Shown: positions 7,224 through 56,151 of the stretch, in pieces
Layout: every line of letters begins with the position of its first letter
Position numbering within the stretch: the stretch's first letter is position 1
NCBI RefSeq assembly: GCF_964204645.1
Contig: NC_134028.1
Span: 11,889,263 to 11,953,262, forward strand
Direction of reading: 5' to 3'
Origin: Tubulanus polymorphus
Taxonomy: Eukaryota > Animalia > Nemertea
DNA length: 64,000 bases
Translations under genes and position numbers: made by a program
The notes under the pieces: generated by a model
Database searches by the model: none
What the model was told of the DNA's origin: nothing
Seen by the model: the letters and a program-made list of their open reading frames with translations, nothing else

Positions 7224-7526
7224 TGTTTTTTGCGGAGTTTGTCGATTATACGCGGTCTCCATATCACTTCACCTTCATTTTTGCCGTCAGAAAAAAACGT
7301 TTAATTTTTCGCGAAATAGAAGGGGTAACAAATTGGTTGATATTTCCGGCATCTACACCTAATAGGCTACACATTTCCGTAAACAACGCTAAAACCGGCC
7401 AAGAAATACAGATTCTAGCAACGTGCTTATGACGCAAGCCCAAATGATATTTTAGCCAATAACGCCCTGATGCGCGAATCGCTAGCGCCATCATAACATT
7501 TCAAGAGAACGTGCCTATGAAACGTT
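7224..7526 (+). repeat. Local duplicate of the Polinton target sequence (empty site)
   Basis: Matches 7691-7863 joined to 24327-24427, and 24685-24715. It contains a single AACGCT (aaacaacgctaaaaccgg) with no insertion. Confidence 0.9.
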
Positions 7527-7668
7527 AGTAATAGGGAATATGGGGGTTCAGATCAAAGGTCGAGTTCATAAAAATGAAAAATAAATTCTCGCACACTCGA
7601 ATTTATTTTTCATTTTTATGAATTCGCCCTCCCAACCTTTAATCTGAACCCCCATATTCCCTATTACT
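7527..7668. repeat. Solo fold-back hairpin with Polinton-like AGTAAT...ATTACT ends
   Basis: Arms agtaatagggaatatgggggttcagat / atctgaacccccatattccctattact, plus an inner palindrome ttcataaaaatgaaaaataaatt / aatttatttttcatttttatgaa. The symmetry extends into the flanks (7512-7683). Confidence 0.9.
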
Positions 7669-7863
7669 AACGTTTCATAGGCATTATTAAATGTTTTTTG
7701 CGGAGTTTGTCGATTATACGCGCTCTCCATATCATATCACTTCACCTTCATTTTTGCCGTCAGAAAAAAACGTTCAATTTTTCGCGAAATAGAAGGGGTA
7801 ACAAATTGGTTGATATTTCCGGCATCTACACCTAATAGGCTACACATTTCCGTAAACAACGCT

Positions 7864-7984
7864 AGTAATTAGAATATGTGGCTTTCAGATCAGAGGACGA
7901 GAGGACGAGACACCACTCATCACCACAAGTAATTTTTTTTTTCCTACTCATCACCACAAGTAATTTTTTTTCCTAATAAATGGG
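7864..7984 (+). repeat. Left TIR of copy 1, with an internal tandem duplication of actcatcaccacaagtaat(T)n-cct
   Basis: Reverse complement of 24231-24320 apart from the duplication. Runs into the ATG of the 108-aa gene. Confidence 0.95.
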
Positions 7985-8306
7985 AGATAGAAAAGCATTC
8001 TTAGCAACAATAAATAACAGAATAAAACCAGCAAAAAAACAATTTGAAATAAAAAAGTTAGTTGATGTTACAAAAGAAATTGAACATAAAATATTGAAAT
8101 TAGAAAAGATAAAAACTAAATATGGAGAGAAAGTATCAGCTAATTTAAGCTACTGTAATGTTAGTACATCGCGAGAATTTAAAGTGTTTTTACCCGATAA
8201 ATGGGTTTCATTGAGTACGGAGGAATTGAAAGATTTAGTAGGATTTAAAATAATATATCATGGGAAAAATGAAGACGGTCATCATGATTTAGAAATTGTT
8301 GATTAA
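7980..8306 (+). CDS. 108-aa Polinton protein (TKYG motif); function unknown, possibly small nucleic-acid-binding
   Basis: TAAATG start inside the TIR. Homologous pseudogenes at 49390-49712, 32064-32337 and 54070-55940. Confidence 0.75.
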   Translation: MGDRKAFLATINNRIKPAKKQFEIKKLVDVTKEIEHKILKLEKIKTKYGEKVSANLSYCNVSTSREFKVFLPDKWVSLSTEELKDLVGFKIIYHGKNEDGHHDLEIVD

Positions 8307-8471
8307 ATTTTAAAAAAAATAAATTAATAAAAATAATGAATATCTAGAATCCGAAATGACTTATCTGGACAATTTAATTGCTCCACAGTGATAGACAAAA
8401 GTAGTGAGATGGTGCCGTATGGCACCCACATGGTGATATTCAATTATTTTTTTTGCTTTTTTTCTAAAATA

Positions 8472-8840
8472 TTAATCCATTTTTTTTATTATCAATTTTG
8501 GAATTTCAGAAGTACTTTCATTTTTGATAGCAGTTGGTTCAGAATTACTAATATCATGAATTTTATTTGATTTCTTATACCAATTACACCCAATCAAAAT
8601 GAATACAATTACAAATCCAACTGTAAAATATAAATATTTATCAAATATTCTATTATCAGAAGGAGTAGAAATAACAATATTTTCACCATTTTTATTAACA
8701 TTTTTATTACTTATTTTTTCTTTTACAGCTTTTTTATATTCTTGTGATTTAATTCCTAATTGTCGAGACCATTCAATTTGTTTCTGAGTTCTCGGTTTTT
8801 TCTTCACAGTTAATTCCTTCACTTCTTCCACCTCGCTCAT
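8472..8840 (-). CDS. 122-aa basic protein with one transmembrane helix
   Basis: TAAATG start; KKKPRTQKQ basic patch; hydrophobic YLYFTVGFVIVFILIGC; intact paralogue at 50807-51175. Confidence 0.8.
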   Translation of the reverse strand: MSEVEEVKELTVKKKPRTQKQIEWSRQLGIKSQEYKKAVKEKISNKNVNKNGENIVISTPSDNRIFDKYLYFTVGFVIVFILIGCNWYKKSNKIHDISNSEPTAIKNESTSEIPKLIIKKMD

Positions 8841-9378
8841 TTATTATAGAAATATTTTTACTTTCAATATTTGAAAATGTTATAACCCCAGTTGATAATA
8901 ATGTCATAAATCCACCTAATTGAAATGATAAATATCCAATCCATTTATTTAATTCAGTCATAACTAAATAGTCATTTTTTAAATCGGAATATAATCTATT
9001 TTCATTTTCAATTGGTAGTATATAATTACATAATTTACTATAACCTTTTACTACATTTTCTGATATCGCGTCATTAATTCTAGCTGTTCTCGCGGCTTCA
9101 TAAATCTTAAATAATCTAATAATTTCATCTGATTTCATTGTATCTAATTCATTATAAGTTAAATTTTTACCGACAAAATTTTTACATTTTCCAGATGCTA
9201 TTAATATTTCTAATTGATGTTTACAATAAAGATAATATTCATAATTATTATTTGTTGTAACATTATTTAAAGCACCATCATCTGGAGTTAATTTTGTTTC
9301 TGTTATTCCTAAATCATCTAAAGTTTTTTCAATTGGAACATCACCATTTTTAGATTTTATTTTCTTTTCACCTCCCAT
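8773..9378 (-). CDS. 201-aa conserved Polinton protein with a hydrophobic C-terminal segment
   Basis: TAAATG start; nearly identical paralogue at 51108-51713; frameshifted copy at 43382-44000. Confidence 0.8.
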   Translation of the reverse strand: MGGEKKIKSKNGDVPIEKTLDDLGITETKLTPDDGALNNVTTNNNYEYYLYCKHQLEILIASGKCKNFVGKNLTYNELDTMKSDEIIRLFKIYEAARTARINDAISENVVKGYSKLCNYILPIENENRLYSDLKNDYLVMTELNKWIGYLSFQLGGFMTLLSTGVITFSNIESKNISIINERGGRSEGINCEEKTENSETN

Positions 9379-9410
9379 TTATATAACAAAAAAATTAATT
9401 ATGTGATGTT

Positions 9411-9672
9411 GCAACTAGAATTCAACTAGAATGTAACTAGAATTCAACTAGATTAACAAGCTAGTTGAAATATTGTTGTTTTTGTTTATTTCTTATTAAA
9501 TGTAGTTGATTTTTGTTCCAACTACTAACAACTAGAATTCAACTAGAATGTAACTAGAATTAAACTAGATTAACAAGCTAGTTAAAATATTGTTAAATCT
9601 ATTTGATTTTTGTTACAACTACTAATAACTAGAATTCAACTAGAATTCAACTAGATTAACAAACTAATTGAA
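9411..9672. repeat. Internal array of 11-bp (C/T)AACTAGAAT(T/G) units in three blocks
   Basis: Directly visible. The same intergenic position carries two-block versions at 43193-43352 and 51744-51921. Confidence 0.92.
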
Positions 9673-9673
9673 T

Positions 9674-10282
9674 TTAAATAAATTCATATTTAAATGGGTG
9701 TTGTAATCTAAATAGTAATTTTGATCTTTTAATATTTTTCAACTCATCCATATATTCATTATGTAAATCATGTGGAATAATATCATTTTCCTCAAGTGCA
9801 TTTTTCATTGATTTTCTATCTTTATTGTAGAATAAAACTAGAAATCTAATGTTTTCTCTAAAGTCTTTAACAATTGAATTATATTTTTGATTTAAAACCC
9901 AAGTTGTCATCCCAAAATGTCTCCCAGAGAAAGCTAAATAGCATAACTCACTTTCTCTAACTTTTGAATCATGTAGATTAGCACAATCATCTATAATGAA
10001 TAATGTATTTGATCCTTTATAAATATCAATTGCTATTTTTATACAATTATCTAAATTTTCTTTTACTGTTTTAGGATCTAATATAATAAATTTATTATTC
10101 CTAGTAATATTTCTATCATAAGTTTGATTAAATTCATATGTTGGACAAAATAATACTATAATATCAAAATAGTTTTTGTAAACAGTTTCTAATAAATTTA
10201 ATATAAAATAAGTTTTTCCACAATTTGTTACACCAGAAATTAACATATTATGAGGCTCAAATATGAATAATTCCTTATTCAT
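9674..10282 (-). CDS. A32/FtsK-like DNA-packaging ATPase
   Basis: Walker A GVTNCGKT, Walker B LFIIDD, and a GRH...Q motif typical of A32-like ATPases. Confidence 0.92.
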   Translation of the reverse strand: MNKELFIFEPHNMLISGVTNCGKTYFILNLLETVYKNYFDIIVLFCPTYEFNQTYDRNITRNNKFIILDPKTVKENLDNCIKIAIDIYKGSNTLFIIDDCANLHDSKVRESELCYLAFSGRHFGMTTWVLNQKYNSIVKDFRENIRFLVLFYNKDRKSMKNALEENDIIPHDLHNEYMDELKNIKRSKLLFRLQHPFKYEFI

Positions 10283-11410
10283 TTATATATTTTTAATTTT
10301 ACTTGATAATATCCATTCATTAAATTTATCTGGCCATCCAACCCATTTTACTAAAGAATATTTTTTTCTTTTAATAGTTTTTGTTTTTAATACTTTTTCA
10401 ATTTTATATTCTTGTTCTAGATTTTCAGTAGTTAAACTTAATTCTTCTTCGTAAAAGTAGCCATCAACTTCTTCACCATCTAAATCTTCTAATTTATAGA
10501 CATATGGTTTTGTTGTTATTACCTTTTTTATTTTATATATTTCCCTAGTAAAATTTCGATCGTATCCTTTGTCAAATATCTTTTTATACTTAGATATTCT
10601 AACATTTTGACCAACTTTAAATTTAGGTTCACCAAAATCATCTATAAGAAATGCTCCATATAAATTATTCCAAACAATTTCAGCATTTTCAGGTTTTCTA
10701 GCATCAATAGGTTTCATTCCAATAGAAGAATGATAAGAATTATTATATCCTTCTATCAATTTTGGTAAAACATCAATCCATTTAAAAGTATTATTTGCTG
10801 TAAAATATTTCCACATTCTTGTTCTTAATGTTCTATTAAATCGTTCAACAACTGCTGCTTTTTTATCTGATTTTGTTGAAAAATATTTAATATTATGATT
10901 ATCTAAGAGTTCATGAACAAGTGAATTATCAAATTCTTTTCCATCATCAAATTGTATTTTTTCTGGTTTTAGTTTATCATCCGAAAGAAATTTTCTTAAA
11001 ACATTTGATGTTTGTACAGCATCTTTTCTATAAAGTGGGAAACTCCATACATAACGACTAAAAATATCAATTATATTCAATAACCACCAATAATCATCAT
11101 TATCTTTCTTAACATTTTTCATATCAATTAAATCTCCTTGCCACTGTTGATCTACATAACTTACCATAGTTTTACGAGTTTTATATTTTCTAACAATTTT
11201 TTTATGTGTTGTATATGTTGGTTGTTCTAACATAAATTCATTTATATCTTTATATTTAACTAAATTTTGTGGGATTATCTTATCTAATTTATCTTGTTTT
11301 ACTTTACGCCATATATTTTTAGTAGAAGAATAAGCAACCGAACTCTCAGGGTTGTAATATAAATTTCTTAAATATTGTTCTTTAGTATTAGGAGTTTTTT
11401 TACCACCCAT
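10283..11410 (-). CDS. Retroviral-type (RVE) integrase with C-terminal chromodomain
   Basis: DDE triad in WQGDLID / IQFDDGKEF / VVERFNRT; chromodomain SLVKWVGWPDKFNEWI. Confidence 0.95.
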   Translation of the reverse strand: MGGKKTPNTKEQYLRNLYYNPESSVAYSSTKNIWRKVKQDKLDKIIPQNLVKYKDINEFMLEQPTYTTHKKIVRKYKTRKTMVSYVDQQWQGDLIDMKNVKKDNDDYWWLLNIIDIFSRYVWSFPLYRKDAVQTSNVLRKFLSDDKLKPEKIQFDDGKEFDNSLVHELLDNHNIKYFSTKSDKKAAVVERFNRTLRTRMWKYFTANNTFKWIDVLPKLIEGYNNSYHSSIGMKPIDARKPENAEIVWNNLYGAFLIDDFGEPKFKVGQNVRISKYKKIFDKGYDRNFTREIYKIKKVITTKPYVYKLEDLDGEEVDGYFYEEELSLTTENLEQEYKIEKVLKTKTIKRKKYSLVKWVGWPDKFNEWILSSKIKNI

Positions 11411-11440
11411 TTATATATCCTTAATTTTAACTTTATATTT

Positions 11441-12688
11441 CTAATATTGAATACTATCTAATTGTGAATTTACAATATTTAATTGTGCGTCAGATATAAT
11501 ATAAATGTGCATTTTAAAATTTTTGATTCCTTTATTCTTTTTCATGAATAATTGTATTCCATCTTTAGTGTTTTGTAGTTTTTTTCCAGAACCATGTAAT
11601 GAATTATCTTCAGTTGTTCTAAAATCTAACCATAATGCATATTTATTACCGGTATAATAATCAATTTGATTAATATTACAATTTTCAGATGATTTTACTT
11701 TTTCATTCATAAAATGTTTTTTAATTTCTACCCATTGATCTATCATTCTCATTCCTTGACAAAATATTTTATTTGCTATTCCTTCGATAGTTATTTCTAC
11801 TTTTGTTATTTCAGGATTATAATAATTGTCAACATTTATTGCGCCATTAGTATACGTTCCAATGGTAAAAAATATTAATATACCTTTAATAGATCTTCTA
11901 GGGAAGTTAATATTCTCATTAATTATTTCATCATTTGCATTAATAGTTACAGTTTTAAATTTATCAATATAATCATATAATAATGAAAATCCTTGATTGT
12001 ATTGAGTTTGAATTATGCTAGCAATATTTTCATTAGTTACTGTGTTATATTCTAAACATATATTCGATAATTTATAACTCATATCTTTATTAACGCTAGA
12101 TAATACAATTTCATTTACAGGAGCAAATGTTATCTCAAATATAATATCTTCTTGAATTGCGTATTTATATAAAGGTGCATTATTATTTATCAATTCAAAG
12201 TCTAATGGAATTTTATATTTGCTTCCATATATACTTTTTATCAATTTATCTACATCATTAGTTAATATTGCATTATTAGCTTCTGATCTTAATTTATTTT
12301 GGTTTTCTGATTGAATTCCTTGAAATATCATATTATTTCTATTTTCTTTAGTTAACCATAAATCTTTATAATGCATAAATAAATTATAATCATCTAATGA
12401 GAAAACTGTTTCTGGACCAATCTTTATTGTTAATTTTTTAATCAAATATCTTCCAACATTATCAACAACATAATTATTATTATTACCGATTACTTTTATA
12501 TCAGCTGATAAATAAATACTGTTTGGAACATAAAAAGTATTTTGTGTTAATCTAGGAATTCTAACATATAAAGTTTCATCAGGATTAATATTAGAAGGGT
12601 TATGAGTAATTATATGATGTGATCTTTCTGCTTTAATAGCATTAGATATTCTATGATTCTTCGAAGGACTTATATAACTCCCACTCAT
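11441..12688 (-). CDS. Putative double jelly-roll major capsid protein
   Basis: 415 aa, beta-strand-rich, next to the integrase and ATPase, and retained in all copies. The fold is inferred from context and resemblance, not computed. Confidence 0.72.
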   Translation of the reverse strand: MSGSYISPSKNHRISNAIKAERSHHIITHNPSNINPDETLYVRIPRLTQNTFYVPNSIYLSADIKVIGNNNNYVVDNVGRYLIKKLTIKIGPETVFSLDDYNLFMHYKDLWLTKENRNNMIFQGIQSENQNKLRSEANNAILTNDVDKLIKSIYGSKYKIPLDFELINNNAPLYKYAIQEDIIFEITFAPVNEIVLSSVNKDMSYKLSNICLEYNTVTNENIASIIQTQYNQGFSLLYDYIDKFKTVTINANDEIINENINFPRRSIKGILIFFTIGTYTNGAINVDNYYNPEITKVEITIEGIANKIFCQGMRMIDQWVEIKKHFMNEKVKSSENCNINQIDYYTGNKYALWLDFRTTEDNSLHGSGKKLQNTKDGIQLFMKKNKGIKNFKMHIYIISDAQLNIVNSQLDSIQY

Positions 12689-12712
12689 TTATTTAACAAA
12701 AAAATTAATTAT

Positions 12713-14149
12713 TTATTTTTTTGATATCATATTTACTAAACCAAAAATAATAGCACTTACAACTGTAATTAAAAATAAAATAATATGTTCAGCAGCAAAG
12801 TTAATAATGTTTCCTGCAGATTTCAATATAAAACCAACAATTGAAGCAATAATTCCTGGTAATGCTGCAGCAGATTTTTTAGATAGTTCCCATAAATATT
12901 TTGCTAATTTTTTTAAACCATCCTTAACTTTATCTTGTATAGAATTATTACCTGGAGGTTTATCTGGTTTGTTAGGAGTGGGAGTAGGAGTAGATTTCAA
13001 AGCATTTGATATTGCTAAACCAATTGTTGTAAATAACATAGTTACAGCTGTTAGAATTGAAAGAATTGTTATTCCTTCTAATTTAAATAATAACTTTATT
13101 CTATCTTTCAATAATATTTCAGAATTTGGTTTAATTAACAAATCTTTAAAAATAACTTTTAATCTATTAATATTATAATCATATGATTTTAACAATAATT
13201 TAATTTCTTCTTTTTGTAATTCTACGTTATATTCTAAATCATCTTTTTCTTTTTCTAAACGTAATTCTTTTTGCCTATATTCTATTTCATCAATTACTTG
13301 ATGATCTAAATCAGACTTTAGTTGTTCTATTTCTTTATTTTTATCAGTTAATTCTTTTTCTAAAGTTCTAATTTTAAAATCTCTTATACTTTTATTATGT
13401 GCAATTTTATCAGATGCAAGTCTTATACTAATAATTTCTCTAATTGCTTTATCAGAAAATATATCTAAATCTTCTAATTCTTGATCTGTTGCATCAAGTA
13501 ATCCATTCGGTAAAAGTTTTTCAATTGGAACTTTATTTGATTTAAGTTTACTATTTTTGGAAGTTATATTCTGTTCAGAAGTTGTTTCTGTTTCTGATTT
13601 CTTTTTGATTATTTCAAATAATTCATTAATTCTTTGTTTAAATACATCTATATTATCATCTATTTCTTTTTGTGTAACATCAGTTATTTCATTACTATTA
13701 CTTATTATTTTAATTCTATCTGGTTTTAATTTTTCTAAAGTTGATTCTGATAATATTTTATTTTTATTATTTTTATAAGTGATATCAATATAATAATCAC
13801 CTTTCAAACGATAATAACATTTACCATTATTTAAAAATTTTAATTGATCTGCTAAAAGTGCAACGTCTTCATCATTTATGTTAAAATTAGATTTTTCAAT
13901 TAAATCTTCTAATTTAGGTATTTTGTTTAAATTATCTAAATCTTGTTTTACTAAATCTGGGTCTAAACTTTCAGGATTTAATTGTGATTCAGCATTTTTA
14001 ATATAATCAGGCATATTCAAATTATTATTATATTCTGGTTCATTACCATCATTAAAACTTGTTTCATCAAAATCAGGTGGTTGTTCATCAGTTATACCAG
14101 GTTCATCAAAAGGATCCATTCAAATATCTTCTACACCTTCTACATCCAT
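12713..14149 (-). CDS. About 478-aa coiled-coil, multi-TM membrane protein; TGA at codon 10 in this copy (ORF track starts at 14119)
   Basis: TAAATG start at 14149 reads MDVEGVEDI*M, whereas copy 3 (38789) reads MDVEGGEDIGM. Acidic N-terminus, heptad-rich middle, TM, PTPTP linker and two further hydrophobic helices. Confidence 0.78.
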
Positions 14150-14166
14150 TTATATAATAAAAAAAA

Positions 14167-15555
14167 TTAAAATTTAAAATATAATATTCCTCCTATAACA
14201 ATTCCTATACAAGTTATAGCTAATTTAGTATTTTCATGGAATTTATTATCATCATTTAGTTTAATTATATCATGTTGAATTTTATCAGTTCTATTATTTT
14301 CTGATGTATTGTAATCTTTTATTTTAGAATCATTATTTAATTTAATATTCTTAGTTTTAGTTTCTGTTGATTGAATATGTTTTTTATTTTTTTCACCTTC
14401 CATTAATTTTGGAGCAGTGATAATCTTTTTATTTATATCATTCAATCCAAATGAATTATTTATTGTTGCAGTTTTAATTAGATTATTATAACCAATTATA
14501 TTTCCCATCTTCAATACTAAATCATTAGAAATAATTAATAGATTAGGGCCTATACAATAATTTAATCTAATATGTGATTTATCTAAATAATTTTGATATC
14601 TTATAATGTTTTCTGGAATCGATCTATTTTTATCATTATGTATGGAATCTTCAAATAATACTTTGAATTGTTTTTGTGTATCGAATGATGTATTCAAATT
14701 TCCAATTATCGGTGATCTTGTTTCAACTTGTGATCCTAGAATACAAATCAAATAAGTTCTAACAGATTGATTTATTCTTTCTATACCTGATTTAGTAAAA
14801 CCTTCACTATTTTCTAAAATAAAATAAACCCAACCATTATTGTTTTCTTGTTTTAAATTATCATAAAATTTTGGTAATTTATTGAAATTTAATGTTTCTA
14901 AATCCTTTGTTTCTATTTTACCATAACCTAATTTTTTATTATAGATATTATAAAAACTATTAGATGGTATGGGAAGTGCACAATATTCTGCAATCTTTCT
15001 AGGGCAAGGAAGTGATCTTATTGTTCCAATTTTTATTCTAAAATCAGAATTATTTATATCTATATTAAATTCATTGCAAATTTTATAAAACTTTGATAAA
15101 TTAATATTATTATCTAATTCTTTGAAATACCTAGATCCTGGTAAAGCGCACTCTAATTCATTTAATATTATTCTGATTTGAAAGTATGTATGAAATCTAA
15201 ATAAACTTTGAATTAATTTATATTTAGAATTATTTAAATGATCATTCCAACTAATTCCACATCCTGTTGTTGCACAATAAACAGCAAAATTTAATTGATT
15301 CTGCCAATACTTCATATTAGATTTTAATAACCATTGTTTTTCATCTTTCAATTTTTTAAAATTAATCAAATATACATGAAATATATTTTCCATCTTTGCA
15401 TTAAAATTATTAGTTTCAGTAACATAAATATATAAATCAATTAATGAATCTAAAACTTCATTTCTATATGTAATATCTTTATTAAAATCTATTGCTGGAA
15501 TATTATATTTAATTGATTTATTATATTGGAAAGCTTTTGGAAAACTATCTACCAT
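14167..15555 (-). CDS. 462-aa protein with C-terminal membrane anchor
   Basis: TAAATG start; C-terminal LAITCIGIVIGGILYF; intact paralogue at 37384-38772. Confidence 0.85.
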   Translation of the reverse strand: MVDSFPKAFQYNKSIKYNIPAIDFNKDITYRNEVLDSLIDLYIYVTETNNFNAKMENIFHVYLINFKKLKDEKQWLLKSNMKYWQNQLNFAVYCATTGCGISWNDHLNNSKYKLIQSLFRFHTYFQIRIILNELECALPGSRYFKELDNNINLSKFYKICNEFNIDINNSDFRIKIGTIRSLPCPRKIAEYCALPIPSNSFYNIYNKKLGYGKIETKDLETLNFNKLPKFYDNLKQENNNGWVYFILENSEGFTKSGIERINQSVRTYLICILGSQVETRSPIIGNLNTSFDTQKQFKVLFEDSIHNDKNRSIPENIIRYQNYLDKSHIRLNYCIGPNLLIISNDLVLKMGNIIGYNNLIKTATINNSFGLNDINKKIITAPKLMEGEKNKKHIQSTETKTKNIKLNNDSKIKDYNTSENNRTDKIQHDIIKLNDDNKFHENTKLAITCIGIVIGGILYFKF

Positions 15556-15571
15556 TTATATAATTAAAAAA

Positions 15572-16006
15572 TTAATAATTTATTAATTCTTTTAATAATT
15601 TATCTTGTTCTTCAACTGTTATATGACCATTTAAACTTATTATATAATCTAGTGTGTTCTTTAATTTATTAATTTCTTTTATATTAGTTTTAATTTTTAC
15701 TTTATTACTTTTTATATTTAATTTTGAACTTATACCGGTTAAAACACTTGAACTTAATCCTAATACACCAATTGATATAGCTAAAGGTGTTAATGGACTG
15801 AATATTGCTAAAAATGTTATTACAGAACTAATTGTAACCGAACCACTTATAATAAGATAATATATAATTTTACTTTTTAAATATTTTTTCTTTTTAACTT
15901 TTAAGTCACTTTCAAATTCTAATATTTGTTTTTCTAAATATGTTTTTAATTTAGTTTTATTTATATCATGAGGAATAATATCAATACTATCAACTTTATC
16001 TTCCAT
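15572..16006 (-). CDS. 144-aa two-TM membrane protein
   Basis: Hydrophobic hairpin IIYYLIISGSVTISSVITFLAIF...LAISIGVLGL; TAAATG start. Confidence 0.8.
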   Translation of the reverse strand: MEDKVDSIDIIPHDINKTKLKTYLEKQILEFESDLKVKKKKYLKSKIIYYLIISGSVTISSVITFLAIFSPLTPLAISIGVLGLSSSVLTGISSKLNIKSNKVKIKTNIKEINKLKNTLDYIISLNGHITVEEQDKLLKELINY

Positions 16007-16025
16007 TTATTTAGAATAAAAATTA

Positions 16026-16448
16026 CTAATTAGTAAACTTATAAGCAACAAATATAACAATAACTGTTCCACCTAAAATCCAAATTATTTCATATTTCTG
16101 TTGTTCTTTACTTGGGGTATAATAATCTGATAATTTAGGTTTGTATAGATGTAATTTTTCTTTATTGGTTACTGCGTTATATAAACTCATTGCATCATCA
16201 ACTGATTGAAAATCTCTATGTGAAATCTTCTGATCATATAATTCTTTATTGATGTAATCCATATAGTTTTGTCTCTTTTCTCTATATTCTTCTGCAGCTT
16301 TATTGTATTTCTCTAACGCTAAGTTATGTCTTCTTTGTTCTCCTAATGAACTATTTTTATCAATATGTTTAAATAAATAACCACCACCAGTAAATGCTAA
16401 AGCGTTAACAATTGCTGATCCTATAATAGTTATAATTGCAGAAGCCAT
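16026..16448 (-). CDS. 140-aa membrane protein (hydrophobic N- and C-termini)
   Basis: MASAIITIIGSAIVNALAFTGGGYLF ... IIWILGGTVIVIFVAY; TAAATG start. Confidence 0.8.
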   Translation of the reverse strand: MASAIITIIGSAIVNALAFTGGGYLFKHIDKNSSLGEQRRHNLALEKYNKAAEEYREKRQNYMDYINKELYDQKISHRDFQSVDDAMSLYNAVTNKEKLHLYKPKLSDYYTPSKEQQKYEIIWILGGTVIVIFVAYKFTN

Positions 16449-16472
16449 TTATTTAACAAAAAAATTATGCAT

Positions 16473-16694
16473 TTATATGGGAGGAATATATTTTTGTTTT
16501 TCCAAATAATCAATTGTTAAATTAGATAAAGTAACTGCTAATGTTAACTTTAAAATATCATTGATATCAAATCTATCAACATTAACACTTCCCATTTTGA
16601 ATACTTTTTTTAATACCATTGAATAACCAACAGTTCCAACTGATAGTAAGGCGCCATTATATAATCCAGTTATTATCCACTTATTATCACTCAT
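16473..16694 (-). CDS. 73-aa small hydrophobic protein
   Basis: Identical in amino-acid sequence to 33461-33682 despite synonymous changes; TAAATG start. Confidence 0.85.
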   Translation of the reverse strand: MSDNKWIITGLYNGALLSVGTVGYSMVLKKVFKMGSVNVDRFDINDILKLTLAVTLSNLTIDYLEKQKYIPPI

Positions 16695-16697
16695 TTA

Positions 16698-17036
16698 TTA
16701 ATCAAAAAAATTACTATCATCAAAATATTTAGTTAACTTATTTATGATTAATTCAACATTTATTTCATTACTAGTTTTATGATTATCATATATTTTGGAT
16801 AATATGTTTTTGATATCTTCAATAATTCCATCTTCATTTAATTCATAATATTCTAAAGGTGATTTAATTAAATCAATTACTTTTTCTATATTATACTTTT
16901 CTTTATCAATCATTGACGCATTGTTAAATGATTTACTTTTTATATCAGTAATTACATCATTTAGTTTAATTCTCATTTCTTTACCATGTTTAAAATCAAA
17001 CCCAAAACATATACTCGGTCCAACAGTTATATTCAT
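16698..17036 (-). CDS. 112-aa hypothetical protein
   Basis: TAAATG start; homologues at 33121-33444 and 36478-36831. Confidence 0.78.
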   Translation of the reverse strand: MNITVGPSICFGFDFKHGKEMRIKLNDVITDIKSKSFNNASMIDKEKYNIEKVIDLIKSPLEYYELNEDGIIEDIKNILSKIYDNHKTSNEINVELIINKLTKYFDDSNFFD

Positions 17037-17052
17037 TTATATAATGAAAAAA

Positions 17053-17811
17053 TTACTCTTTACATCTTATAACTAATTCATAAATTACAGGGAAATTATT
17101 TAAATCAATTAAGTATCCATTATGATTTCTAATTTCTAATCTAAAATTATTAAAACGAGGAATGCATGGTTTGAAATCACATTCTGTTAAATTATAATTT
17201 ATTTGCGTTCCAAATTGTTTAACATTCTTCAATGGTAAAATGTTTAGTAAACCAGAATTACATGTTGTATCTTTAGTTGCTTCAAATGTTTTTGTAGGAT
17301 CGATTAAATTGCAATAAATATAAAAATGTGTAAAAGGTATTATATTTGAATTACCGTCTACGTTTCCTGTAACAATTTGTGGTTTAATTCCTAACAGTTT
17401 AGCTAAAGGTTTCCTTACCATAAATGCATGTTTGCTTTCATCATCTAACTTTATTTTAATTTTATCAGAACTATCACTTTTTATAAATCTAATTGAAAAT
17501 TTATATTCACTTCCAAGTTTTAAACGAGCTCTTTTATTAATTTCTTGGGCTAATGTTTCTAAATTATATAATCCTGGTTTTAACATTAGATAAAACCATT
17601 TATTTTTATTTTTCATATGAATTGCAAAACCTCTATGTTCGAAAGTTTTATCCGATATATTATAAAAAGAATTACATAAACTTATATTTACTAATTTCAA
17701 ATCAACGCAATTCTTAAATTCTCTATCTAATTGTACTAATAAATTATGAGATTTATAATTTGTAAGTTTTCTAGAATCAATAAATATTCTGTATTCTTTT
17801 AATTCTACCAT
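17053..17811 (-). CDS. Putative minor capsid (penton, single jelly-roll) protein
   Basis: N-terminal IFIDSR, G-x-Y (PGLYN), FYIYCNLI and C-terminal IDLNNFPVIYEL resemble Polinton/virophage penton motifs. Confidence 0.68.
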   Translation of the reverse strand: MVELKEYRIFIDSRKLTNYKSHNLLVQLDREFKNCVDLKLVNISLCNSFYNISDKTFEHRGFAIHMKNKNKWFYLMLKPGLYNLETLAQEINKRARLKLGSEYKFSIRFIKSDSSDKIKIKLDDESKHAFMVRKPLAKLLGIKPQIVTGNVDGNSNIIPFTHFYIYCNLIDPTKTFEATKDTTCNSGLLNILPLKNVKQFGTQINYNLTECDFKPCIPRFNNFRLEIRNHNGYLIDLNNFPVIYELVIRCKE

Positions 17812-17879
17812 TATTTATAACATAAAAAAATTACCGCTCATCACTAAAAATTAATTTTAATAAAATTTTTCCTTAATAA

Positions 17880-41504: not shown

Positions 41505-41535
41505 GAAATATAAAGTTAAAATTAACGATATATAA

Positions 41536-43381: not shown

Positions 43382-44000
43382 ATGGTAGGTGAAAAGAAAA
43401 TAAAATCTAAAAATGGTGATGTTCCAATTGAAAAAACTTTAGATGATTTAGGAATAACAGAAAACAAATTAATTCCAGATGATGGTGCTTTAAATAATGT
43501 TACAACAAATAATAATTATGAATATTATCTTTATTGTAAACATCAATTAGAAATATTAATAGCATCTGGAAAATGTAAAAATTTTGTCGGTAAAAATTTA
43601 ACTTATAATGAATTAGATACATTACAATGAAATCAGATGAAATTATTAGATTATTTAAGATTTATGAAGCCGCGAGAACAGCTAGAATTAATGACGCGAT
43701 ATCAGAAAATGTAGTAAAAGGTTATAGTAAATTATGTAATTATAATTATATACTACCAATTGAAGATGAAAATAGATTATATTCCGATTTAAAAAATGAC
43801 TATTTAGTTATGACTGAATTAAATAAATGGATTGGATATTTATCATTTCAATTAGGCGGATTTATGACATTATTATCAACTGGGGTTATAACATTTTCAA
43901 ATATTGAAAGTAAAAATATTTCTATAATAAATGAGCGAGGTGGAAGAAGTGAAGGAATTAACTGTGAAGAAAAAACCGAGATCACAGAAACAAATTTTTT
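43382..44000 (+). pseudogene. Frameshifted 201-aa gene (copy 3)
   Basis: ORFs 43382-43630 and 43627-44028. Confidence 0.85.
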
Positions 44001-44155
44001 ATTTCAAATTGTTTTTTTGCTGGTTTAAATCTGTTATTTATTGTTGCTAAGAATGCTTTTCTATCTCCCATTTATTAGGGAAAAAAATTACTTGTGGTGA
44101 TGAGTGGTGTCTCGACCTTCGACCTCTGATCTGAAAGCCTACTTTTCCAATTACT

Positions 44156-45696: not shown

Positions 45697-46305
45697 CTAA
45701 TCACTGATTAAAACCACAGAATGCGGTTGATTCTGCGAGCTACTATTCCATAATTCAACGAATGTCTTTCCTTTAACCAGTTGATCTAAATATAACTGTA
45801 AATCTAGTTTATTAGATTTAATTATATTTTCCTTCTTTTCTAATGGTCTTAAATTTCTCCAGCTCCAGATTAGCTTCTTATTATAATCATCACTCATGTC
45901 AAATTTAGAAATCGGCAACACGTGATCATGTGGAAGTATTCACCATAATTATCTATATTCATTTTATCGTCGAATTGATATACAATCCATGATTTTAAGA
46001 ATTCATCTGTACAACCCAACAAATTAGATAGCGTGTATGAGTGTTTGTCTTTGTTGAATAAATGTTTTAATCTTGAACTTAAGCATTGCTTCAATTTAAA
46101 ATTAAGATCTGTTTGATATCTTTCTTTTCGATAATTATTACTGTAATCATTATAATGTTCACGATTATTATTTCTCCATTCTCTCATATATTCTGTCATA
46201 TAATCTGGGTGATTTGTAAAATATGTTTTATCATTCTGTTTCCAACATGTTTTACAATTATTTCTTAAACCGTCTTTCTTAGTTTTTTGTGTGTAATATT
46301 CTGTA
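45697..46305 (-). pseudogene. HNH-type endonuclease pseudogene, 5'-truncated by a hairpin-ended element
   Basis: DGLRNNCKTC...YGEYFH-DHVLPISKFD...WRNLRPLEKKEN; inverted paralogue of 46539-47461. Confidence 0.75.
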
Positions 46306-46458
46306 AGTAATAGGGATAATAGGCGTTCATACCAAAGGTCAAACGGTCGAGCTCATAAAAAATGAAAAAATAAGTTCTCGCACGCTCGTATTTATTTTTC
46401 ATTTTTTACTCGCCCGCCCCTTCAACCTTTGATATGAACGCCTATTATCCCTATTACT
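46306..46458. repeat. Hairpin terminus (AGTAAT...ATTACT), third example
   Basis: Arms agtaatagggataataggcgttcata / tatgaacgcctattatccctattact; the inner AAAAATGAAAAA palindrome is conserved. Confidence 0.88.
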
Positions 46459-46663
46459 CTTAAAATATTCATATATATGAATAAAATATAAATGAATAAC
46501 TTCTAAAATCAATTTAGTAACAAATATTTGATATTAAAATGGAATCAGAACAATCTCAAACTATCAATATTACAAATAACACTGGTGTCATAAATATATA
46601 CTACAAGAAATGTTCTAAATGTGAATTAGATAAATTAGCTATAACAGAATTTAGTAAGCGTAA

Positions 46664-46904
46664 TAGAACGATGACCACACTCAAACGTGGTGAACGGATA
46701 ATAAGATAAAATCCCACTATTTACAGATTAAAAGAATTTAAAAACCCGATTTTATTTATTAAATTATTATTTATTTATTCAGGTCACCTGACGATGATCT
46801 CTAGGGTGAGATCGAAACGTCGTGTCTTTTAAATATTTTAGATTTAATAAATAAAATCTGGTTTTTAAATTCTTTTAAACTGTAAATAGTGGGATTTTAT
46901 CTTA
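46664..46904 (+). mobile_element. Penelope-like retroelement remnant (inverted arms around a hammerhead)
   Basis: 13-bp TSD TTAGTAAGCGTAA (46651-46663 and 46905-46917); inverted arms of about 65 bp; central hammerhead core. Confidence 0.75.
46781..46828 (+). ncRNA. Minimal type I hammerhead ribozyme
   Basis: cac-CTGACGA-tgatctc(tagggt)gagatc-GAAAC-GTC-gtg: core boxes, stem II and a short palindromic stem III (ACGT), as in Penelope pLTR hammerheads. Confidence 0.75.
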
Positions 46905-47816
46905 TTAGTAAGCGTAAGATTAGCAAAGATGGTTTTCAATATTGCTGTAAAACTTGCACTAAACTATATAACAAACAATACCGAGAAGATAATATAGAAC
47001 ATTATAATTATTATATGACAGAATATATGAGAGAAAGATATAAAACAGATCTTAATTTTAGATTGAAACGATGCTTAAGATCTAGATTAACACAATTATT
47101 CAACAAAGAAACTCATTCAGAAACACTATCTAATTTGTTGGGTTGTTCAGATGAATTCTTAAAATCATGGATTATATATCAGTTTGATGATGAAATGAAT
47201 GAAAAAAACTATGGTGAATACTTTCATATTGATCACGTGTTGCCGATTTCTAAATTTGACATGAGTGATGATTATAATAAGAAGCTAATATGGAGCTGGA
47301 GAAATTTAAGACCTTTAGAAAAGAAGGAAAATATAATTAAACCTAATAAACTAGATTTACAGTTATATTTAGATCGACTGGTTAAAGCAAAGACATTTGT
47401 TGAATTATGGAATAGTAGCTCGCAGAATCAACCGCATTCTGAGGTTTTAATCAGTGGTTAGAAAACCGGCAACTCTATTTGAGCCTTGTATGTATATAAT
47501 ACATAGCTTTTGCTTACTACTAAAACATCTGTCGTCAAATATATCTTGTTTTCAATTTTAAAGAATTAATTAACTTCATCATAAAGAACATCTGTTACAA
47601 TCCAGGCAAACGTGCAGAAATAATTAGTCTGGTCGAACGTGCGCCACGTCGGCAGTTAGAAATCAACATTCACATACATAGTACGTATTGGATATTCTCT
47701 CTCAAAACACAGTTTACAGTTCTAAATCTACCGTTTTTGTAGTTATTATGAAGTAGGGAAACCTTTAAACATATTTAAGTACAGTAATTCATTTTCACGA
47801 TATCTTTTAGATTAAA

Positions 47817-48242: not shown

Positions 48243-49040
48243 AACCATATTAAATAGAAAAGCAAATCACCTATGGGACCACATCATTTTCGGGGGTTAT
48301 CTAAATATAGGGTTTACAATGTTTGATAAAGAAACTGCGGGGATTTCTTGGGGGCGTGGGTTAAAAAGAACATAGATATCAGTGCCGGCTTTGAAAGAAA
48401 ACTGAGAAGAGTTGGTAGATTAATAAAATATGAAAAATTCAAAATATTAGGTTTAGCATTTAGTGAAGTAGTCAGATATTTGCCAGAAATTGAAGAAATG
48501 ATTGGAAACAATCCAGTAATTAAAGAATTCTGGACGAAATTATAAATTACAACATTGAAGATCTTTGTAATATAGATATCAAAAAATGTAATCTCGATTG
48601 TGTAAATCTGCTTTAATATTGTATTGTTATGCATTAGTCGTTCGGTCGTTGTTAATGGCGGCGGCTGTTCTGTATTAATTGTTTACTAGTAACTAAGTAT
48701 TGCGCAATAACCAGTCCGATTGGACCGCTTTTCTATTGTTCTCCATTGTTCTATCTTCGATCGTTGTTGACGGAAACAGCTGCTCAATATTGATTGGTTA
48801 CAGTTCTAAGTTTGAATGTTGAAGTTGACAGAATAAAAATATAACTGTGTATTACGCAATAACCGGTCCGATGGGACCGCCTTTCTATTGTTCTCCATTG
48901 TTCTATCTTCGATCGCTAAAATTTGCATAATAAATATACGTGTTTATGAAATAGTAGTAATTGGAAGATGTGGGTTTCATACCAGAGTACTAGAGTACTA
49001 AACACCACTCATCACCACAAGTAATTTTTTTTCCTAATAA

Positions 49041-49256: not shown

Positions 49257-50806
49257 CTTATCTGGACAGTTATAATTACTGCTCCTAATAGATGCTGTGA
49301 GGCTTGGGTGAGAACGGTTAATAGCGTACTTGTTATACAAGGGGAAGTAATCCCCACTCATCACCACAAGTAATTTCTTTTCCTAATAAATGGGAGATAG
49401 AAAAGCATTCTTAGCAACAATAAATAACAGAATAAAACCATCAAAAAACAATTTGAAATAAAAAAAGTTGACGTTACAAAAGAAATTGAACATAAAATAT
49501 TGAAATTAGAAAAGATAAAAACTAAATATGGAGAGAAAGTATCAGCGAATTTAAGCTACTGTAATGTTAGTACATCGCGAGAATTTTAAGTGTTTTTACC
49601 TGATAAATGGGTTTCATTGAGTACAGAGGAATTAAAAGATTTAGAAGGATTTAAAATAATCTATCATGGGAAAAATGAAGACGGTCATCATGATTTAGAA
49701 ATTGTTGATTAAATAAGAAATAAAAATAATGAATATCTAGAATCCAAAATGACCTTAGTCGTTTTATAAACAACAACAATCATACAATCAAACATCTGTT
49801 ACATGTTATTATAAGAGAGTGCTTCATTTGAATATTGATCAATCAAACAGGTCAAACCGCCCATATGCAATTGTATTAGGTTGTTTACAAAAGCATCTGT
49901 CGCACGTTATATTCAGTTGAATAGGGTGTATCTCATTTGAATATTGATCGAATGTTCTATTTCAGTTGAAAAGGATTAATCAATTATATTACAAAGGAAG
50001 GAACATCTGTTGCACCAGACATTGTTTAGCTAGTGAATAACTGGTAGTTATAAACGCGCAGCACATAAGCATAGGAACGTATAGGATATTCTCTCTATAA
50101 ACACAATTTTAGGAGTTTACAGTTATAAATGTAAGTACTGTTTTTGTTGTTATTAAGGCGTTGGGAAACGTTAAATCTGTAAAACTTATCCTGGTAAGAT
50201 GCGCCACAAAATGGCCATGTTTAAGTGATGTAATTAATATTTTACAACTACAACTTCAAGTTAGTTTTATTCTACGTTAGATATTTATCTTTTAGATAAC
50301 AAAATGAAGGCCATTGAATCAAGAAAGTGAAGATAGATGGATGTGGAATCAGAAATTATGGATATTTCAACTCATGAGACTGTAGCAGTTTAGCCATACT
50401 GTAAAGGCTTCCAATGCATTACGTTTGTCGGAATTTCAATTGCGTCATTAAGCTGTTGTTAATGTCACACAGTGACAGATGTTGTATTGTATTTTATTGA
50501 TTCCTGCATTCCGCGCATACCTTACCGCTCCTCTCAGGAGCGGCTTGGAATGTGGAAATCGATAATGATTGTAGAATAAAATATATGTGTTTATGAAATA
50601 GTATTTCCACCAGTCGTTTCTTTGAATTTATTTTCAGTTTTAGGATTGATTATCGAGAGTCCGAAATGACTTATCTGGACAGTTATAATTACTGCTCCTA
50701 TAGATAAACAATAGTAGTGAGATGGTGCCGTATGGCACCCACATGGTGATATTCAATTAATATTCAATTAATTAAAAAAATTATTTTTTTGCTTTTTTCT
50801 AAAATA

Positions 50807-51713: not shown

Positions 51714-51968
51714 TTATATAACAAATAAATTAGTTGTGTTGTTGCAACTAGAATTCAACTAGAATGTAACTAGAATTCAACTAGATTAACAAGCTAGATG
51801 AAATATTGTTGTTTTTGTTTATTTCTTGTTAAATCTAGTTGATTTTTGTTACAACTACCAATAACTAGAATTCAACTAGAATGTAACTAGAATTCAATTA
51901 GATTAACAAGCAAGTTGAATTCAAATAAATTCAAATTTAAATGGGTGTTGTAATCTAGATAGTAATTT

Positions 51969-52529: not shown

Positions 52530-53548
52530 TTATATATTTTTAATTTTACTTGATAATATCCATTCATTAAATTTATCTGGCCATCCAACCCATTTTACTA
52601 AAGAATATTTTTTTCCTTTAATAGTTTTTGTTTTTAATACTTTTTCAATTTTATATTCTTGTTCTAGATTTTCAGTAGTTAAACTTAATTCTTCTTCGTA
52701 AAAGTAGCCATCAACTTCTTCACCATCTAAATCTTCTAATTTATAGACATATGGTTTTGTTGTTATTACCTTTTTTATTTTATATATTTCTCTAGTAAAA
52801 TTTCGATCGTATCCTTTATCAAATATCTTTTTTTTCTAGCATCAATAGGTTTCATTCCAATAGAAGAATGATAAGAATTATTATATCCTTCTATCAATTT
52901 TGGTAAAACATCAATCCATTTAAAAGTATTATTTGCTGTAAAATATTTCCACATTCTTGTTCTTAATGTTCTATTAAATCGTTCAACAACTGCAGCTTTT
53001 TTATCCGATTTTGTTGAAAAATATTTAATATTATGATAATCTAAGAGTTCATGAACAAGTGAATTATCAAACTCTTTTCCATCATCAAATTGTATTTTTT
53101 CTGGTTTTAGTTTATCATCCGAAAGAAATGTTCTTAAAACATTTGATGTTTGTACAGCATCTTTTCCATAAAGTGGGAAACTCCATACAAAACGACTAAA
53201 AATATCAATTATATTCAATAACCACCAATAATCATCATTATCTTTCTTAACATTTTTCATATCAATTAAATCTCCTTGCCACTGTTGATCTACATAACTT
53301 ACCATAGTTTTACGAGTTTTATATTTTCTAACAATTTTTTTATGTGTTGTATATGTTGGTTGTTCTAACATAAATTCATTTATATCTTTATATTTATCTA
53401 AATTTTGTGGGTTTATCTTATCTAATTTATCTTGTTTTACTTTACTCCATATATTTTTGGTAGAAGAATAAGCAACCGAACTCTCAGGGTTGTAATATAA
53501 ATTTCTTAAATATTGTTCTTTAGTATTAGGAGTTTTTTTACCACCCAT
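52530..53548 (-). pseudogene. Integrase with internal deletion and frameshift (copy 4)
   Basis: Deletion after PIDARK near 52830. Confidence 0.88.
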
Positions 53549-54303
53549 TTATATATCGTTAATTTTAACTTTATATTTCTAATATTGAATACTATCTAAT
53601 TGAGAATTTACAATATTTAATTGTGCGTCAGATATAATATAAATGTGCATTTTAAAATTTTTGTCTCCTCTTTTCTTTTTCATGAATAATTGTATTCCAT
53701 CTTTAGTGTTCTGTAGTTTTTTCCAGAACCATGTAATGAATTGCTTCGAAAGTTTTTGTAGGATCGATTAAATTGCAATAAATATAAGTGTGTAAAAGGT
53801 ATTATATTTGAGATGCATTCTGCGTTTCCAGTAACTGTACTAATATATCATCTTTATATTCTAGTTTCAATTTATTTTCTAAGTGTGTTTTAGTTTTATT
53901 ATGTCTTGCCTTTTGAGATTTATCTATATTGATTTTACATGTTGGACAGTAGTACTTATTTGCTTCCATTTCAATATCAAAATTTTTATTAAAATTGATT
54001 TCATACTATTCGAAATCTATATCATGGTGCCCTTTTTCATTCTTACCTTTGTATATGAAATAGAAATCACCAGAACATAATTCTTCTAGATCTTCACTAG
54101 ATAATCTATGAAATCTATCTGGTAAATATGTTCTGAATTTATATTTATTTCCTTTTAATCCTTCCTATTCTAAGTGGATAACTAATTTATTACCATATCT
54201 ATTAGTAATTGTTTCAAAATTTGTAATTAAATATTTCTTATGTAATGTGAATTCATTTAACTTCTTAAATTTATAATCTACAGATTTGACATGTGTAGTA
54301 TCT

Positions 54304-55900
54304 AGGGTTTTTTTGTTTCTTCACAGAAAACCCTATTGAAATTCGCGTGATTATTATTTTTTTCCCTTTTCCACAGTTTTTGTTAAAAGTGTAAAGGCTT
54401 CGTTACCTTACCGCTGTCGCCGATACAATCCGTATGATATCCTTCAGCTCACTTCAATCTCCAGATACTGCATGGGAATTTTGATAAATCCACGTTATAA
54501 AGGCACTGTCGAGCCGTAAACATCGGAAATTTGGCTCCGTTCAATTAGTAGCCATGTTGTGTTTTCTTTCCGACATTTCTCTCTTCTTTTCGAGGAAGAG
54601 CTATCGAATAATTCCCTCTCTTCTCCACAATCAATTTCAAAGTCAATTTTATAGATTTATTGCTCAGCGGGTCCAAGTCCAAGAGTTTACGAGTCCGGCC
54701 TTCGCGGGTCTGACAGGTTTACGGACATTTGTTTATTTACCTCTTTAATATTTCTGATTTCTTGTTATTCAGGTTATTTCATGGTGCGATTCAAGAATAG
54801 GGGAATATAGCAATATATATGTAGTGATAGTAATCAATTAAGTAATAATATTAGTAATTGCTAATGATGAAATATAATGATAGTAATGTATATAGTAATT
54901 AATGATGATTAGGGAACTAAACCTAAACCTAACCCTAATCCTAACCACTAGTCCCCTATTCTTGAATCTTACCAAATCGAGGTCGTTGAGTCGCGGATGG
55001 CCACTAGAATTACGTTCGTCTCAGAGAGAAAACAAACGACAGAAAAGTATCAGGCGATTATCGATAGCCTACTACGGTACACACAGTTGACAAACAGTGT
55101 TAGGCCTGTGCCGGTTGGTGCGTACTGGGACTAAATACACGTTGAAAAAACACAAGTTATGCTTGATTCTCGTGTTCAAATTTAATTCAAATTCAAATTT
55201 ATTCTATTTCATCATATTTACAAAGCATATCATTAGTTCATACAGTAATGAAAATTAGGACAGAACAAATATTATTACAGAATTTCCAAAAAGGCAATGA
55301 ATTTCTATAACTAAATGAACATTATTTTTCTAATAACTCAGATCAAGAGTGACTCTCCCTTTTATTAGGAAACACACGCAACTAGTGGAATAGATTTGAT
55401 TTACATGCATGTTGCAGGTATCAATTGTTTATCACTATAGAATTTGTAATCCATAAAAGCCAAAATCAACATCAGCCGGAAACCCAGACCAAATCAATTC
55501 ATAATGTATTGATTGAATCTACACTTCAATATATGTATTTATTCAAATATTTCAATAAAAACATTAACTTCTTAAATCTATTCTAATTCATAATACGTTC
55601 TTATCTGTAAATTCACTCAATCTATCGACTCAGCAGGTGCTTAAGATGAGTTCTTAATAGGACAGATCCATTTTTAAGCATGGTGATAATACAGTATCAT
55701 GATGTTTGAATTCCAAAATAAATGCCTGGTCAAATGAATTGATATATGTTGATTGTACGTCCGCGTATGTTCGGTTTCAAAGCTGAATCACATTTGACGT
55801 CAATGCATTTTATTCTATGTATCGGTATTTCAATTTACTACAATTCCCATCATTCTGAATGGCTTTGCAGAAAACCCGTCATCGCTGCTTAGCAGCTATA
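54304..55900. mobile_element. Non-autonomous (HINE-like) insertion splitting a 108-aa homologue
   Basis: Flanks rejoin as MASKQIHSEFLNR/...TTHVKSVDYK on the minus strand. The terminal stem-loop cgctgcttagcagctatatt is also seen inverted at 2289-2316. Confidence 0.55.
54783..54973. repeat. Small MITE-like element with AACCCT-like internal repeats
   Basis: Inverted ends gattcaagaatagggga / tcccctattcttgaatc. Confidence 0.55.
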
Positions 55901-56036
55901 TTTCTATTTAAGAATTCACTGTGTATTTGTTTACTCGCCATTTCAATAACAAATTTTTTATTAAAATTGATTTTAGAAGTTATTCATTTATATATCTTAT
56001 TCATTAATATTTTATTCATATATATGGAATTATTAG

Positions 56037-56151
56037 AGTAATTGGGAATGTGTTGGTTCAGGTTAAAGGTTGAGAGGGTGAGTTCATAAAAAATGAAAAA
56101 TAAATTCGAGCGTGCGAGAATTTATTTTTCATTTTGTATATTAATTCCCAG
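56037..56151. repeat. Degraded hairpin terminus, fourth example
   Basis: agtaattgggaatgtgttggttcagg...ttcataaaaaatgaaaaataaatt-cgagcgtgcgag-aatttatttttcatttt; the conserved leader lies on its left in inverted orientation. Confidence 0.75.

Follow-up and report, generated by a model that had tools for sequence, protein, structure and literature searches.

Fold-back palindromes as probable outer ends of a second Polinton/Maverick lineage in the nemertean Tubulanus polymorphus

The 64,000-nucleotide stretch of contig NC_134028.1 of Tubulanus polymorphus considered here (assembly GCF_964204645.1, positions 11,889,263 to 11,953,262; the window) contains a cluster of Polinton/Maverick copies, which are AT-rich (21-25% GC) and lie within host DNA of about 37-46% GC. 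Four hairpin-forming palindromes, hp1 to hp4, occur in it; all four start with AGTAAT, and hp1, hp2 and hp3 end with ATTACT. These positions and ends, proposed in a first-pass annotation made from the sequence alone, were confirmed by reading the sequence and by folding the palindromes as single-stranded DNA. The unit hp1 (7527-7668, unstranded) stands alone, with an AT-rich palindromic core separating its outer arm from its inner arm; its fold has an energy of -56.1 kcal/mol, a z score of -16.3 versus shuffled sequences and 61 pairs. A 6-bp target duplication, AACGTT, can be read directly on its left (7521-7526) and right (7669-7674), and these flanks make a longer palindrome; the site before insertion was a perfect 20-nt palindrome. 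Sequence and folding place hp2 at 24716-24903 (+) (-46.5 kcal/mol, z -8.7), as the terminus at the polymerase end of a decayed element, copy B. Its relative hp3 (46306-46458 (+); -45.6 kcal/mol, z -13.8), recognized by its fold and by reads, belongs to a diverged subfamily, and hp4 (56037-56151 (-); -16.2 kcal/mol, z -5.3) retains the inner arm and core, the outer arm being mostly deleted. Around hp2, hp3 and hp4 no target duplication was found, so that hp1 is the only one of the four to possess one.

In place of the AT-rich core, hp2 contains a fragment of 18S rRNA of about 100 nt (24755-24857 (+), edges approximate), which matches Rfam family RF01960 with 77.7 bits and an E value of 7e-21, the posterior being high over these positions only. 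This is the sole Rfam match in the window, and no family matched any of the hairpins. The fragment is joined through a few shared letters on each side and looks like either the repair of a broken palindrome centre by filler DNA or the product of a template switch. Because the arms of hp1 and hp2 are 100% identical and their left flank is common, the two count as one lineage.

The flanks outside the AGTAAT ends are alike, reading ..TATGAAACGTT at hp1 (7510-7526) and hp2 (24700-24715) and ..TATGAAATAGT at copy C (48940-48955), a third element described below; uninterrupted versions of the latter site are found at 44786-44803 (-) and 50597-50614, inside other element copies. This resemblance between flanks suggests a target-site preference of the integrase.

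The plain type of terminus is represented by copy A (7864-24320 (-)), an intact Polinton recognized by its repeats, its target duplication and an empty site. Its two ends match over 76 of 76 nt, and the repeat extends past the ATG of both terminal genes. The target duplication, AACGCT, lies at 7858-7863 and 24321-24326, and the empty site at 7385-7390, in the neighbouring duplicate of the host unit. Copy A begins its AGTAAT at 7864 and copy C at 48956, which corrects the earlier placement of both. The first-pass annotation had proposed that the hairpin arms are homologous to the start of one plain repeat; in alignments they indeed match the initial ~45 nt of the plain repeats in all three copies, A, B and C, and hairpin arms and plain repeats have in common a doubled 8-mer located some 32-46 nt inward. 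The host DNA around hp1 and hp2 is itself a duplicated unit (7215-7526, and 7669-7864 plus 24321-24715) with about 95% identity; one of its copies has a 240-bp gap, each ends at a hairpin, and copy A lies inside the second.

Copy A displays several of the features by which a Polinton/Maverick is recognized, namely a protein-primed family B DNA polymerase (pPolB), an rve integrase, and terminal repeats that begin with 5'-AG and are flanked by a 6-bp target duplication, as hp1 is too. The polymerase, of 1687 aa (19172-24235 (-)), has 3920 relatives at E<=0.001, several of which, among the matches listed, carry PF03175. Searches of Pfam, PHROGs and PDB sequences gave no name to this polymerase or to the putative capsid proteins. 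An intein with a LAGLIDADG domain splits the polymerase at aa 1201-1486 and is lacking in copy B and in two related loci introduced below, L004 and L005. The integrase (10283-11410(-)) matches PF00665 with an E value of 2.5e-10; its chromodomain match is weak (E 8e-4; 19.7 bits, under the Pfam cut-off of 25.1 bits). Of the morphogenetic genes typical of Polintons (A32-type packaging ATPase, double jelly-roll capsid protein and protease), the ATPase was identified through PF04665 (E 3.5e-13), while no protease was recognized.

Copy B (24716-44155) has the opposite orientation to copy A. Translation reveals the start of its decayed pPolB gene at 24963-25022 (+), with an in-frame stop at codon 20, and a tblastn search with pPolB proteins traced the remnants to about 31000. 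Its other end is a plain-type terminal repeat (44081-44155 (-)), identified by repeat comparison, as was that of copy C (48956-49032 (+)), which begins at 48956 and has an internal deletion. The relationship between copies A and B is mosaic: the structural module is about 95% identical (7864-15912 versus 37016-44155), and the polymerase module, broken up in copy B, has 72-74% DNA identity (19323-23944 versus 27459-30915). At the polymerase end the two bear different types of terminus. An inversion between copies A and B as the origin of the context of hp2 was ruled out, as copy A has a clean duplication and an empty site.

Inward of hp2, hp3 and hp4, leader alignment identified a common leader, at 24904-24962 (+), 46459-46538 (+) and 55942-56036 (-), respectively; for hp2 and hp4 it was also recovered by motif search. 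All three exact leader motifs in the window adjoin a hairpin, and in all three cases the arm with an extra 8 nt faces the leader, so that the orientation of the hairpin to the leader is fixed. The leader of hp2 runs up to the ATG of the pPolB remnant and that of hp3 precedes a broken gene resembling endonuclease VII/HNH proteins. After the leader of hp4 there is a 20-codon remnant open reading frame (55879-55941 (-)), possibly the start of the small terminal gene, its translation being too short for homology. The first-pass annotation had described one leader followed by different genes; the leader does stand beside these three hairpins, but the last of the genes is such a remnant, and the gene called HNH matches only the endonuclease VII family of PHROGs. 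As in copy A, the leader makes up the inner portion of the terminal repeat, and different genes are found behind it because the repeat reaches the start codons of both terminal genes. Polymerase N-termini occur at 24963 and in a fragment at 53805-53969 (E 1e-11 to copy A); the latter belongs to an aligned segment (53802-54003 (-)) that encodes 55 aa of the pPolB N-terminus and has a truncated leader and no hairpin left.

Copies elsewhere in the genome were judged from the raw Illumina reads of an independent study (X5) and from contigs of three other runs; the P1 runs may be the source of the window sequence and are hence not independent. In X5, unique host flank has a depth of about 12-15 (bins 7678-7839). 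At 85% likeness, the depth at hp3 rises from 16.8 (46276-46291) to 2590-3468 (46308-46355), which corresponds to some 175-250 hairpin termini per unique depth. Just before 46306, 1568 reads have loose ends, and since these agree with their consensus at only 0.34, the outer flanks must be diverse. Across the inner end of hp3 the depth stays level (2372, 2648 and 2419 over 46436-46483), and no cluster of loose ends lies at the inner end among the 24 of 405 rows listed, the smallest listed X5 row comprising 499 reads. Furthermore, 662 reads pass from the leader into the start ATGGAAGC, which is shared with the pPolB remnant at 24963. Because the boundary is sharp on the outside and absent at the inner ATTACT, the hairpins are mostly linked to the leader: most form the outer extremity of a unit whose leader and genes follow on the inside, and are not free miniature inverted-repeat transposable elements (MITEs). 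Contigs also bridge the junctions between flank and arm (record 10 of X2 over 7460-7554, record 1 of X1 over 46180-46338). Three loose-end contexts taken from the reads gave no match when searched in the window. That the hairpins are circle or head-to-tail junctions was ruled out, as their AGTAAT ends point to the outside, where the flanks are diverse. Reads at 46350-46372 and 7566-7617 reveal that many hairpins in the genome exceed those of the window in length through an additional duplicated segment in each arm, and another class of reads shares the outer arm and continues into different sequence without a core.

We compared 80 loci encoding relatives of the polymerase and three from viral contigs; 28 of these had more than 150 nt upstream of the predicted pPolB start. 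The three viral loci came from a protein scan of the contigs, and two of them were cut before the pPolB start; a search of viral contigs for the terminal-repeat pattern gave no matches. One locus, L005, comes from an unrelated assembly and encodes a pPolB 64% identical to that of copy A. It has a palindrome of 257 nt running from AGTAAT to ATTACT (z -13.9), followed by a leader and a 121-aa homologue of the 108-aa small terminal gene of copy A (E 4e-20); the small gene stands between the hairpin and the pPolB gene, the latter some 560 nt downstream of the former. At 940-1010 of L005, after the 121-aa gene, just the first 17 nt of the terminal arm are found, then a leader and then pPolB, which could represent the minimal terminus of a nested element or the outcome of a rearrangement. 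L004 (73% in its best segment) has a plain repeat. L002, an IMG/VR contig with integrase and A32 ATPase upstream, possesses a different, branched palindrome of 184 nt (4657-4840, z -15) between a divergent 115-aa gene and pPolB, which resembles the junction at which a related element is joined head to tail or closed into a circle. Palindromes at L069 and L081 were judged on inspection to be unrelated.

The remnants of the copy B pPolB are 72.6% identical to L005, 61.1% to copy A and 60.2% to L004, and the pPolB proteins of copy A and L004, both of plain type, are 69.5% identical. In this small sample of two hairpin-type and two plain-type elements, the terminus type tracks the pPolB lineage. 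Since copy B and L005 share the design, the hairpin has outlasted considerable divergence. The second type of terminus put forward in the first-pass annotation is thus supported by the diverse reads outside the outer AGTAAT, by the continuity into the leader and a pPolB-type start, and by the design of L005. The outcome that was to count against it, hairpins occurring mainly as independent MITEs without a fixed link to the leader, is not what we observe: reads are continuous at the inner end, all three exact leader motifs stand beside a hairpin, and L005 shares the design.

Arms were compared in an arm-only alignment, as a MAFFT alignment of whole hairpins put L005 out of register. In the first 27 columns the outer arm equals the inner arm at 27/27 positions in hp1, 26/27 in hp3 and 24/27 in L005, while between lineages only 14-21 of 27 match; 11 of the 14 variable columns in this tract have changed on both arms. 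Past column 28 there are 17 variable columns, and in not one of them do the arms agree in every lineage. In hp1, hp3 and L005 alike, the arms first disagree at column 27-28, where the outer arm has C and the inner arm T. At all five of the variant sites listed in the first 26 nt of the outer arm, X5 reads contain the complementary variant at the mirrored site of the inner arm, with paired frequencies of 0.47/0.50, 0.48/0.44, 0.85/0.74, 0.34/0.46 and 0.37/0.43; reads can fit either palindromic arm, by which these frequencies and the arm depths are partly confounded. That arms differ between copies and match within a copy, as noted at first, is borne out by the counts over the first 27 columns, but hp1 and hp2 are not independent instances of it. 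The match does not establish the further claim that the structure is under selection, as copying of one arm from the other explains it equally well: the repeats of copy A match over 76 of 76 nt in the same manner, and the identity within hairpins stops at about 27 nt.

To our knowledge, the replication and end maintenance of Polintons/Mavericks have never been shown experimentally. The standing model requires two distant repeats to find each other. The fold-back palindromes, of about 115-190 bp, carry the end of a terminal repeat on one side of an AT-rich palindromic core and the same end, inverted, on the other. We consider it probable that they lie at the outer extremity of a long terminal repeat, which runs on through the leader to the start codon, in a second Polinton/Maverick lineage of high copy number, where they likely act in a local snap-back. 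In such a mechanism, a strand would be displaced by the protein-primed polymerase and its 3' end would anneal to the inner arm close by, rather than to a repeat 15-20 kb away. A double-stranded end, usable for priming and by the integrase, would thereby be restored, and eroded terminal bases could be refilled from the inner arm; the identity tract of about 27 nt would be the result of this refilling. Palindromic termini would also act as direct repeats, so that two ends might recombine, or a unit might serve as a mini-element, yielding solo units such as hp1. More tentatively, we propose that a pPolB-encoding Polinton lineage may have evolved true fold-back telomeres, with an inverted spare of the last ~27 nt at each end that would permit local snap-back, rebuilding of the end and repair of erosion, and with each terminus a mini-transposon that could be shed.

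Several observations weigh against this interpretation. The snap-back function is deduced from the anatomy of the termini, and the matched arms are no proof of selection, as concerted copying or recent origin explains them equally. The independent hairpin lineages compared are three (hp1/hp2, hp3 and L005), hp4 being without one arm, and the fit of reads to either arm bears on the comparison as described above. In the window, no hairpin-type element is intact or has both ends with a matching duplication, and the two ends of copy B have different flanks. The hairpin is dispensable for the family, since plain termini suffice in copy A, intact and with a clean duplication, and in L004, and since a pPolB in L005 is itself preceded by just 17 nt of the terminal arm. 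Among the 28 loci, the hairpin design was found upstream of pPolB only in L005, with 25 others having none. Solo units could make up a minority of the copies, given that 24 of 405 loose-end rows are listed. No pile-up of read starts was seen at the terminus, and thus no sign of free linear copies.

The main rival to the snap-back interpretation, which we regard as unlikely, is that the hairpin is a neutral passenger: two Polinton ends joined by internal deletion or by a snap-back copying error would have given a fold-back mini-element that was fused once to a repeat-less body, with the identity of the arms due to gene conversion or recent origin. The join between inner arm and leader falls exactly at the last base of the unit's ATTACT, as the fusion of a complete mini-element would produce, and the sufficiency of plain termini in copy A and L004, the replacement of the hp2 core by the 18S fragment and the decay of the outer arm of hp4 fit a structure without a function. 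Yet the design has persisted from copy B to L005, across polymerases about 27% apart, with the arms changing together, and the lineage has reached some 175-250 termini per unique depth. Plain conversion, moreover, does not predict that the identity should stop abruptly near nt 27, nor that three of three lineages should have the outer-C/inner-T first mismatch in common.

That the hairpins are independent MITEs, free non-autonomous units moved by the Polinton integrase and tending to land beside element ends, appears improbable. It would account for hp1, which stands alone within a perfect AACGTT duplication, and the alike flanks at AGTAAT ends, hence a target preference, agree with it. A free MITE would be expected to have its own duplication and unrelated flanks in each unit, and this is found at hp1 only; hp2, hp3 and hp4 lack a duplication around the unit, and the orientation to the leader is fixed in 3/3. 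The reads argue in the same direction, with 1568 diverse loose ends on the outside and neither a fall in depth nor, among the 24 of 405 rows listed, a cluster at the inner end. Even hp1 could equally be a solo remnant of recombination between palindromic termini.

Known systems offer parallels for the anatomy and for the proposed snap-back. The classic plain Polinton repeats share with the hairpins the 5'-AGTAAT, the doubled 8-mer, the 6-bp duplication and a repeat reaching both start codons; they differ in having neither the inverted second copy of the end nor the palindromic core. MITEs and foldback transposons of the Drosophila FB/Galileo type are short and non-coding, are self-complementary over nearly their full length, and have the ends of an autonomous family as their boundaries. 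The hairpins resemble such units, and hp1 has its own target duplication, but most genomic copies continue on one side into the leader and genes of a complete element. In the palindromic telomeres of protein-primed linear replicons of Streptomyces and in the adenovirus panhandle, a single-stranded 3' end pairs with a complementary copy and thereby rebuilds or patches the terminus; these systems are not integrating transposons, and the analogy is purely functional. Parvoviruses and adeno-associated virus (AAV) have single-stranded genomes that self-prime from a terminal hairpin of 100-250 nt with conserved stem mismatches and need a Rep/NS1 nickase. The palindromes described here are likewise terminal, of 100-250 nt, able to fold on themselves and equipped with conserved stem mismatches. 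They differ in that the protein-primed polymerase is kept and in that a scan of 13 proteins detected no Rep-like domain.

We found one published report of terminal palindromes in this virus group, a bioRxiv preprint of 2026 (10.64898/2026.07.28.741278), the available portion of which describes them in endogenous virophages and in one subtype of polinton-like virus of Halocafeteria seosinensis. In the available portions of PMC11296320, 10.64898/2026.10.13.758929, 10.1101/2022.07.28.501842, PMC6431247 and PMC4061559, no such ends are described. The first-pass annotation had held internal palindromes to be foreign to classic Polintons; the plain repeats indeed lack them, but according to the accessible text of the 2026 preprint (10.64898/2026.07.28.741278) they exist in virophages and the one polinton-like virus subtype. 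As far as that text goes, the Halocafeteria palindromes also lie within terminal inverted repeats, at the extremity and adjoining the target duplication, much like the outer AGTAAT here and in particular hp1, and their elements are likewise integrated and encode an rve integrase, a hairpin being proposed at the excised end. The example given there is a palindrome of 52 nt, compared with units of 142-257 nt here, and the palindromes go preferentially with pPolB-less elements, whereas ours belong to a pPolB-encoding lineage (copy B, the 662 reads and L005). Two copies of the integrase end with an AT-rich core, the occurrence of solo units and a different eukaryotic host also set our hairpins apart from the Halocafeteria palindromes as described in that portion of the preprint.

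Replication primed by the hairpin itself, in which the palindrome would supply a self-priming 3' end in the manner of parvoviruses and replace protein priming, is distinctly improbable for the lineage described here. The required geometry is present, with the 3' end in a paired stem, and the available part of the preprint (10.64898/2026.07.28.741278) proposes this model for related elements; the same part links palindromes mostly to elements without pPolB. The present lineage retains its protein-primed polymerase, and the 662 reads tie the leader to the pPolB start. Neither a nicking nor a Rep-type domain was found in the 13 proteins scanned, several of which remain unnamed, and the X5 reads contain no strand-switch class centred on the terminus.

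A hairpin RNA gene, with the palindrome transcribed into a long hairpin RNA (a small-RNA precursor or a Pol III product) of use to the element or to the silencing machinery of the host, is very improbable: T runs in the core and a long, near-perfect stem speak for it, but Rfam matched no hairpin, and the hairpin starts at the first base of the element, which leaves no space for an upstream promoter. The chance of an assembly artefact is negligible, since, easily as palindromes and multi-copy repeats are misassembled by collapse or mis-joining, and even if the P1 runs are the source of the window, the X5 raw reads extend at high depth over the arms, the core, the inner junction and the leader, the junctions between flank and arm are spanned by contigs and an unrelated assembly (L005) has the same design.

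If the termini are indeed fold-back ends, they would connect, in their mechanism, viruses with hairpin ends to protein-primed replicons that have plain repeats. With a spare inverted end only a few dozen bases inward, such a terminus would offer a concrete handle on Polinton end maintenance, with a sharp tract of about 27 nt, a conserved first mismatch, a core that seems dispensable and at least about 100 natural copies in one genome. Palindromic termini behaving as direct repeats would explain how fold-back and solo units of Polintons can arise. Terminal palindromes are hereby extended to a pPolB-encoding lineage; before, the available literature offered only the 2026 preprint on virophages of protists.

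Some further features lie in the window. The endonuclease-VII/HNH-like gene after hp3 is split by an unrelated palindromic, MITE-like insert of 209 nt with different ends (46699-46907). Arrays of an 11-nt repeat, CAACTAGAATT, occupy an equivalent intergenic place in three element copies (9412-9695, 43213-43350 and 51745-51902). A long (ATAC)n microsatellite extends over 846-2036, and a short run of CCTAA-like, telomere-type repeats is present in host-like DNA at about 54905-54950.

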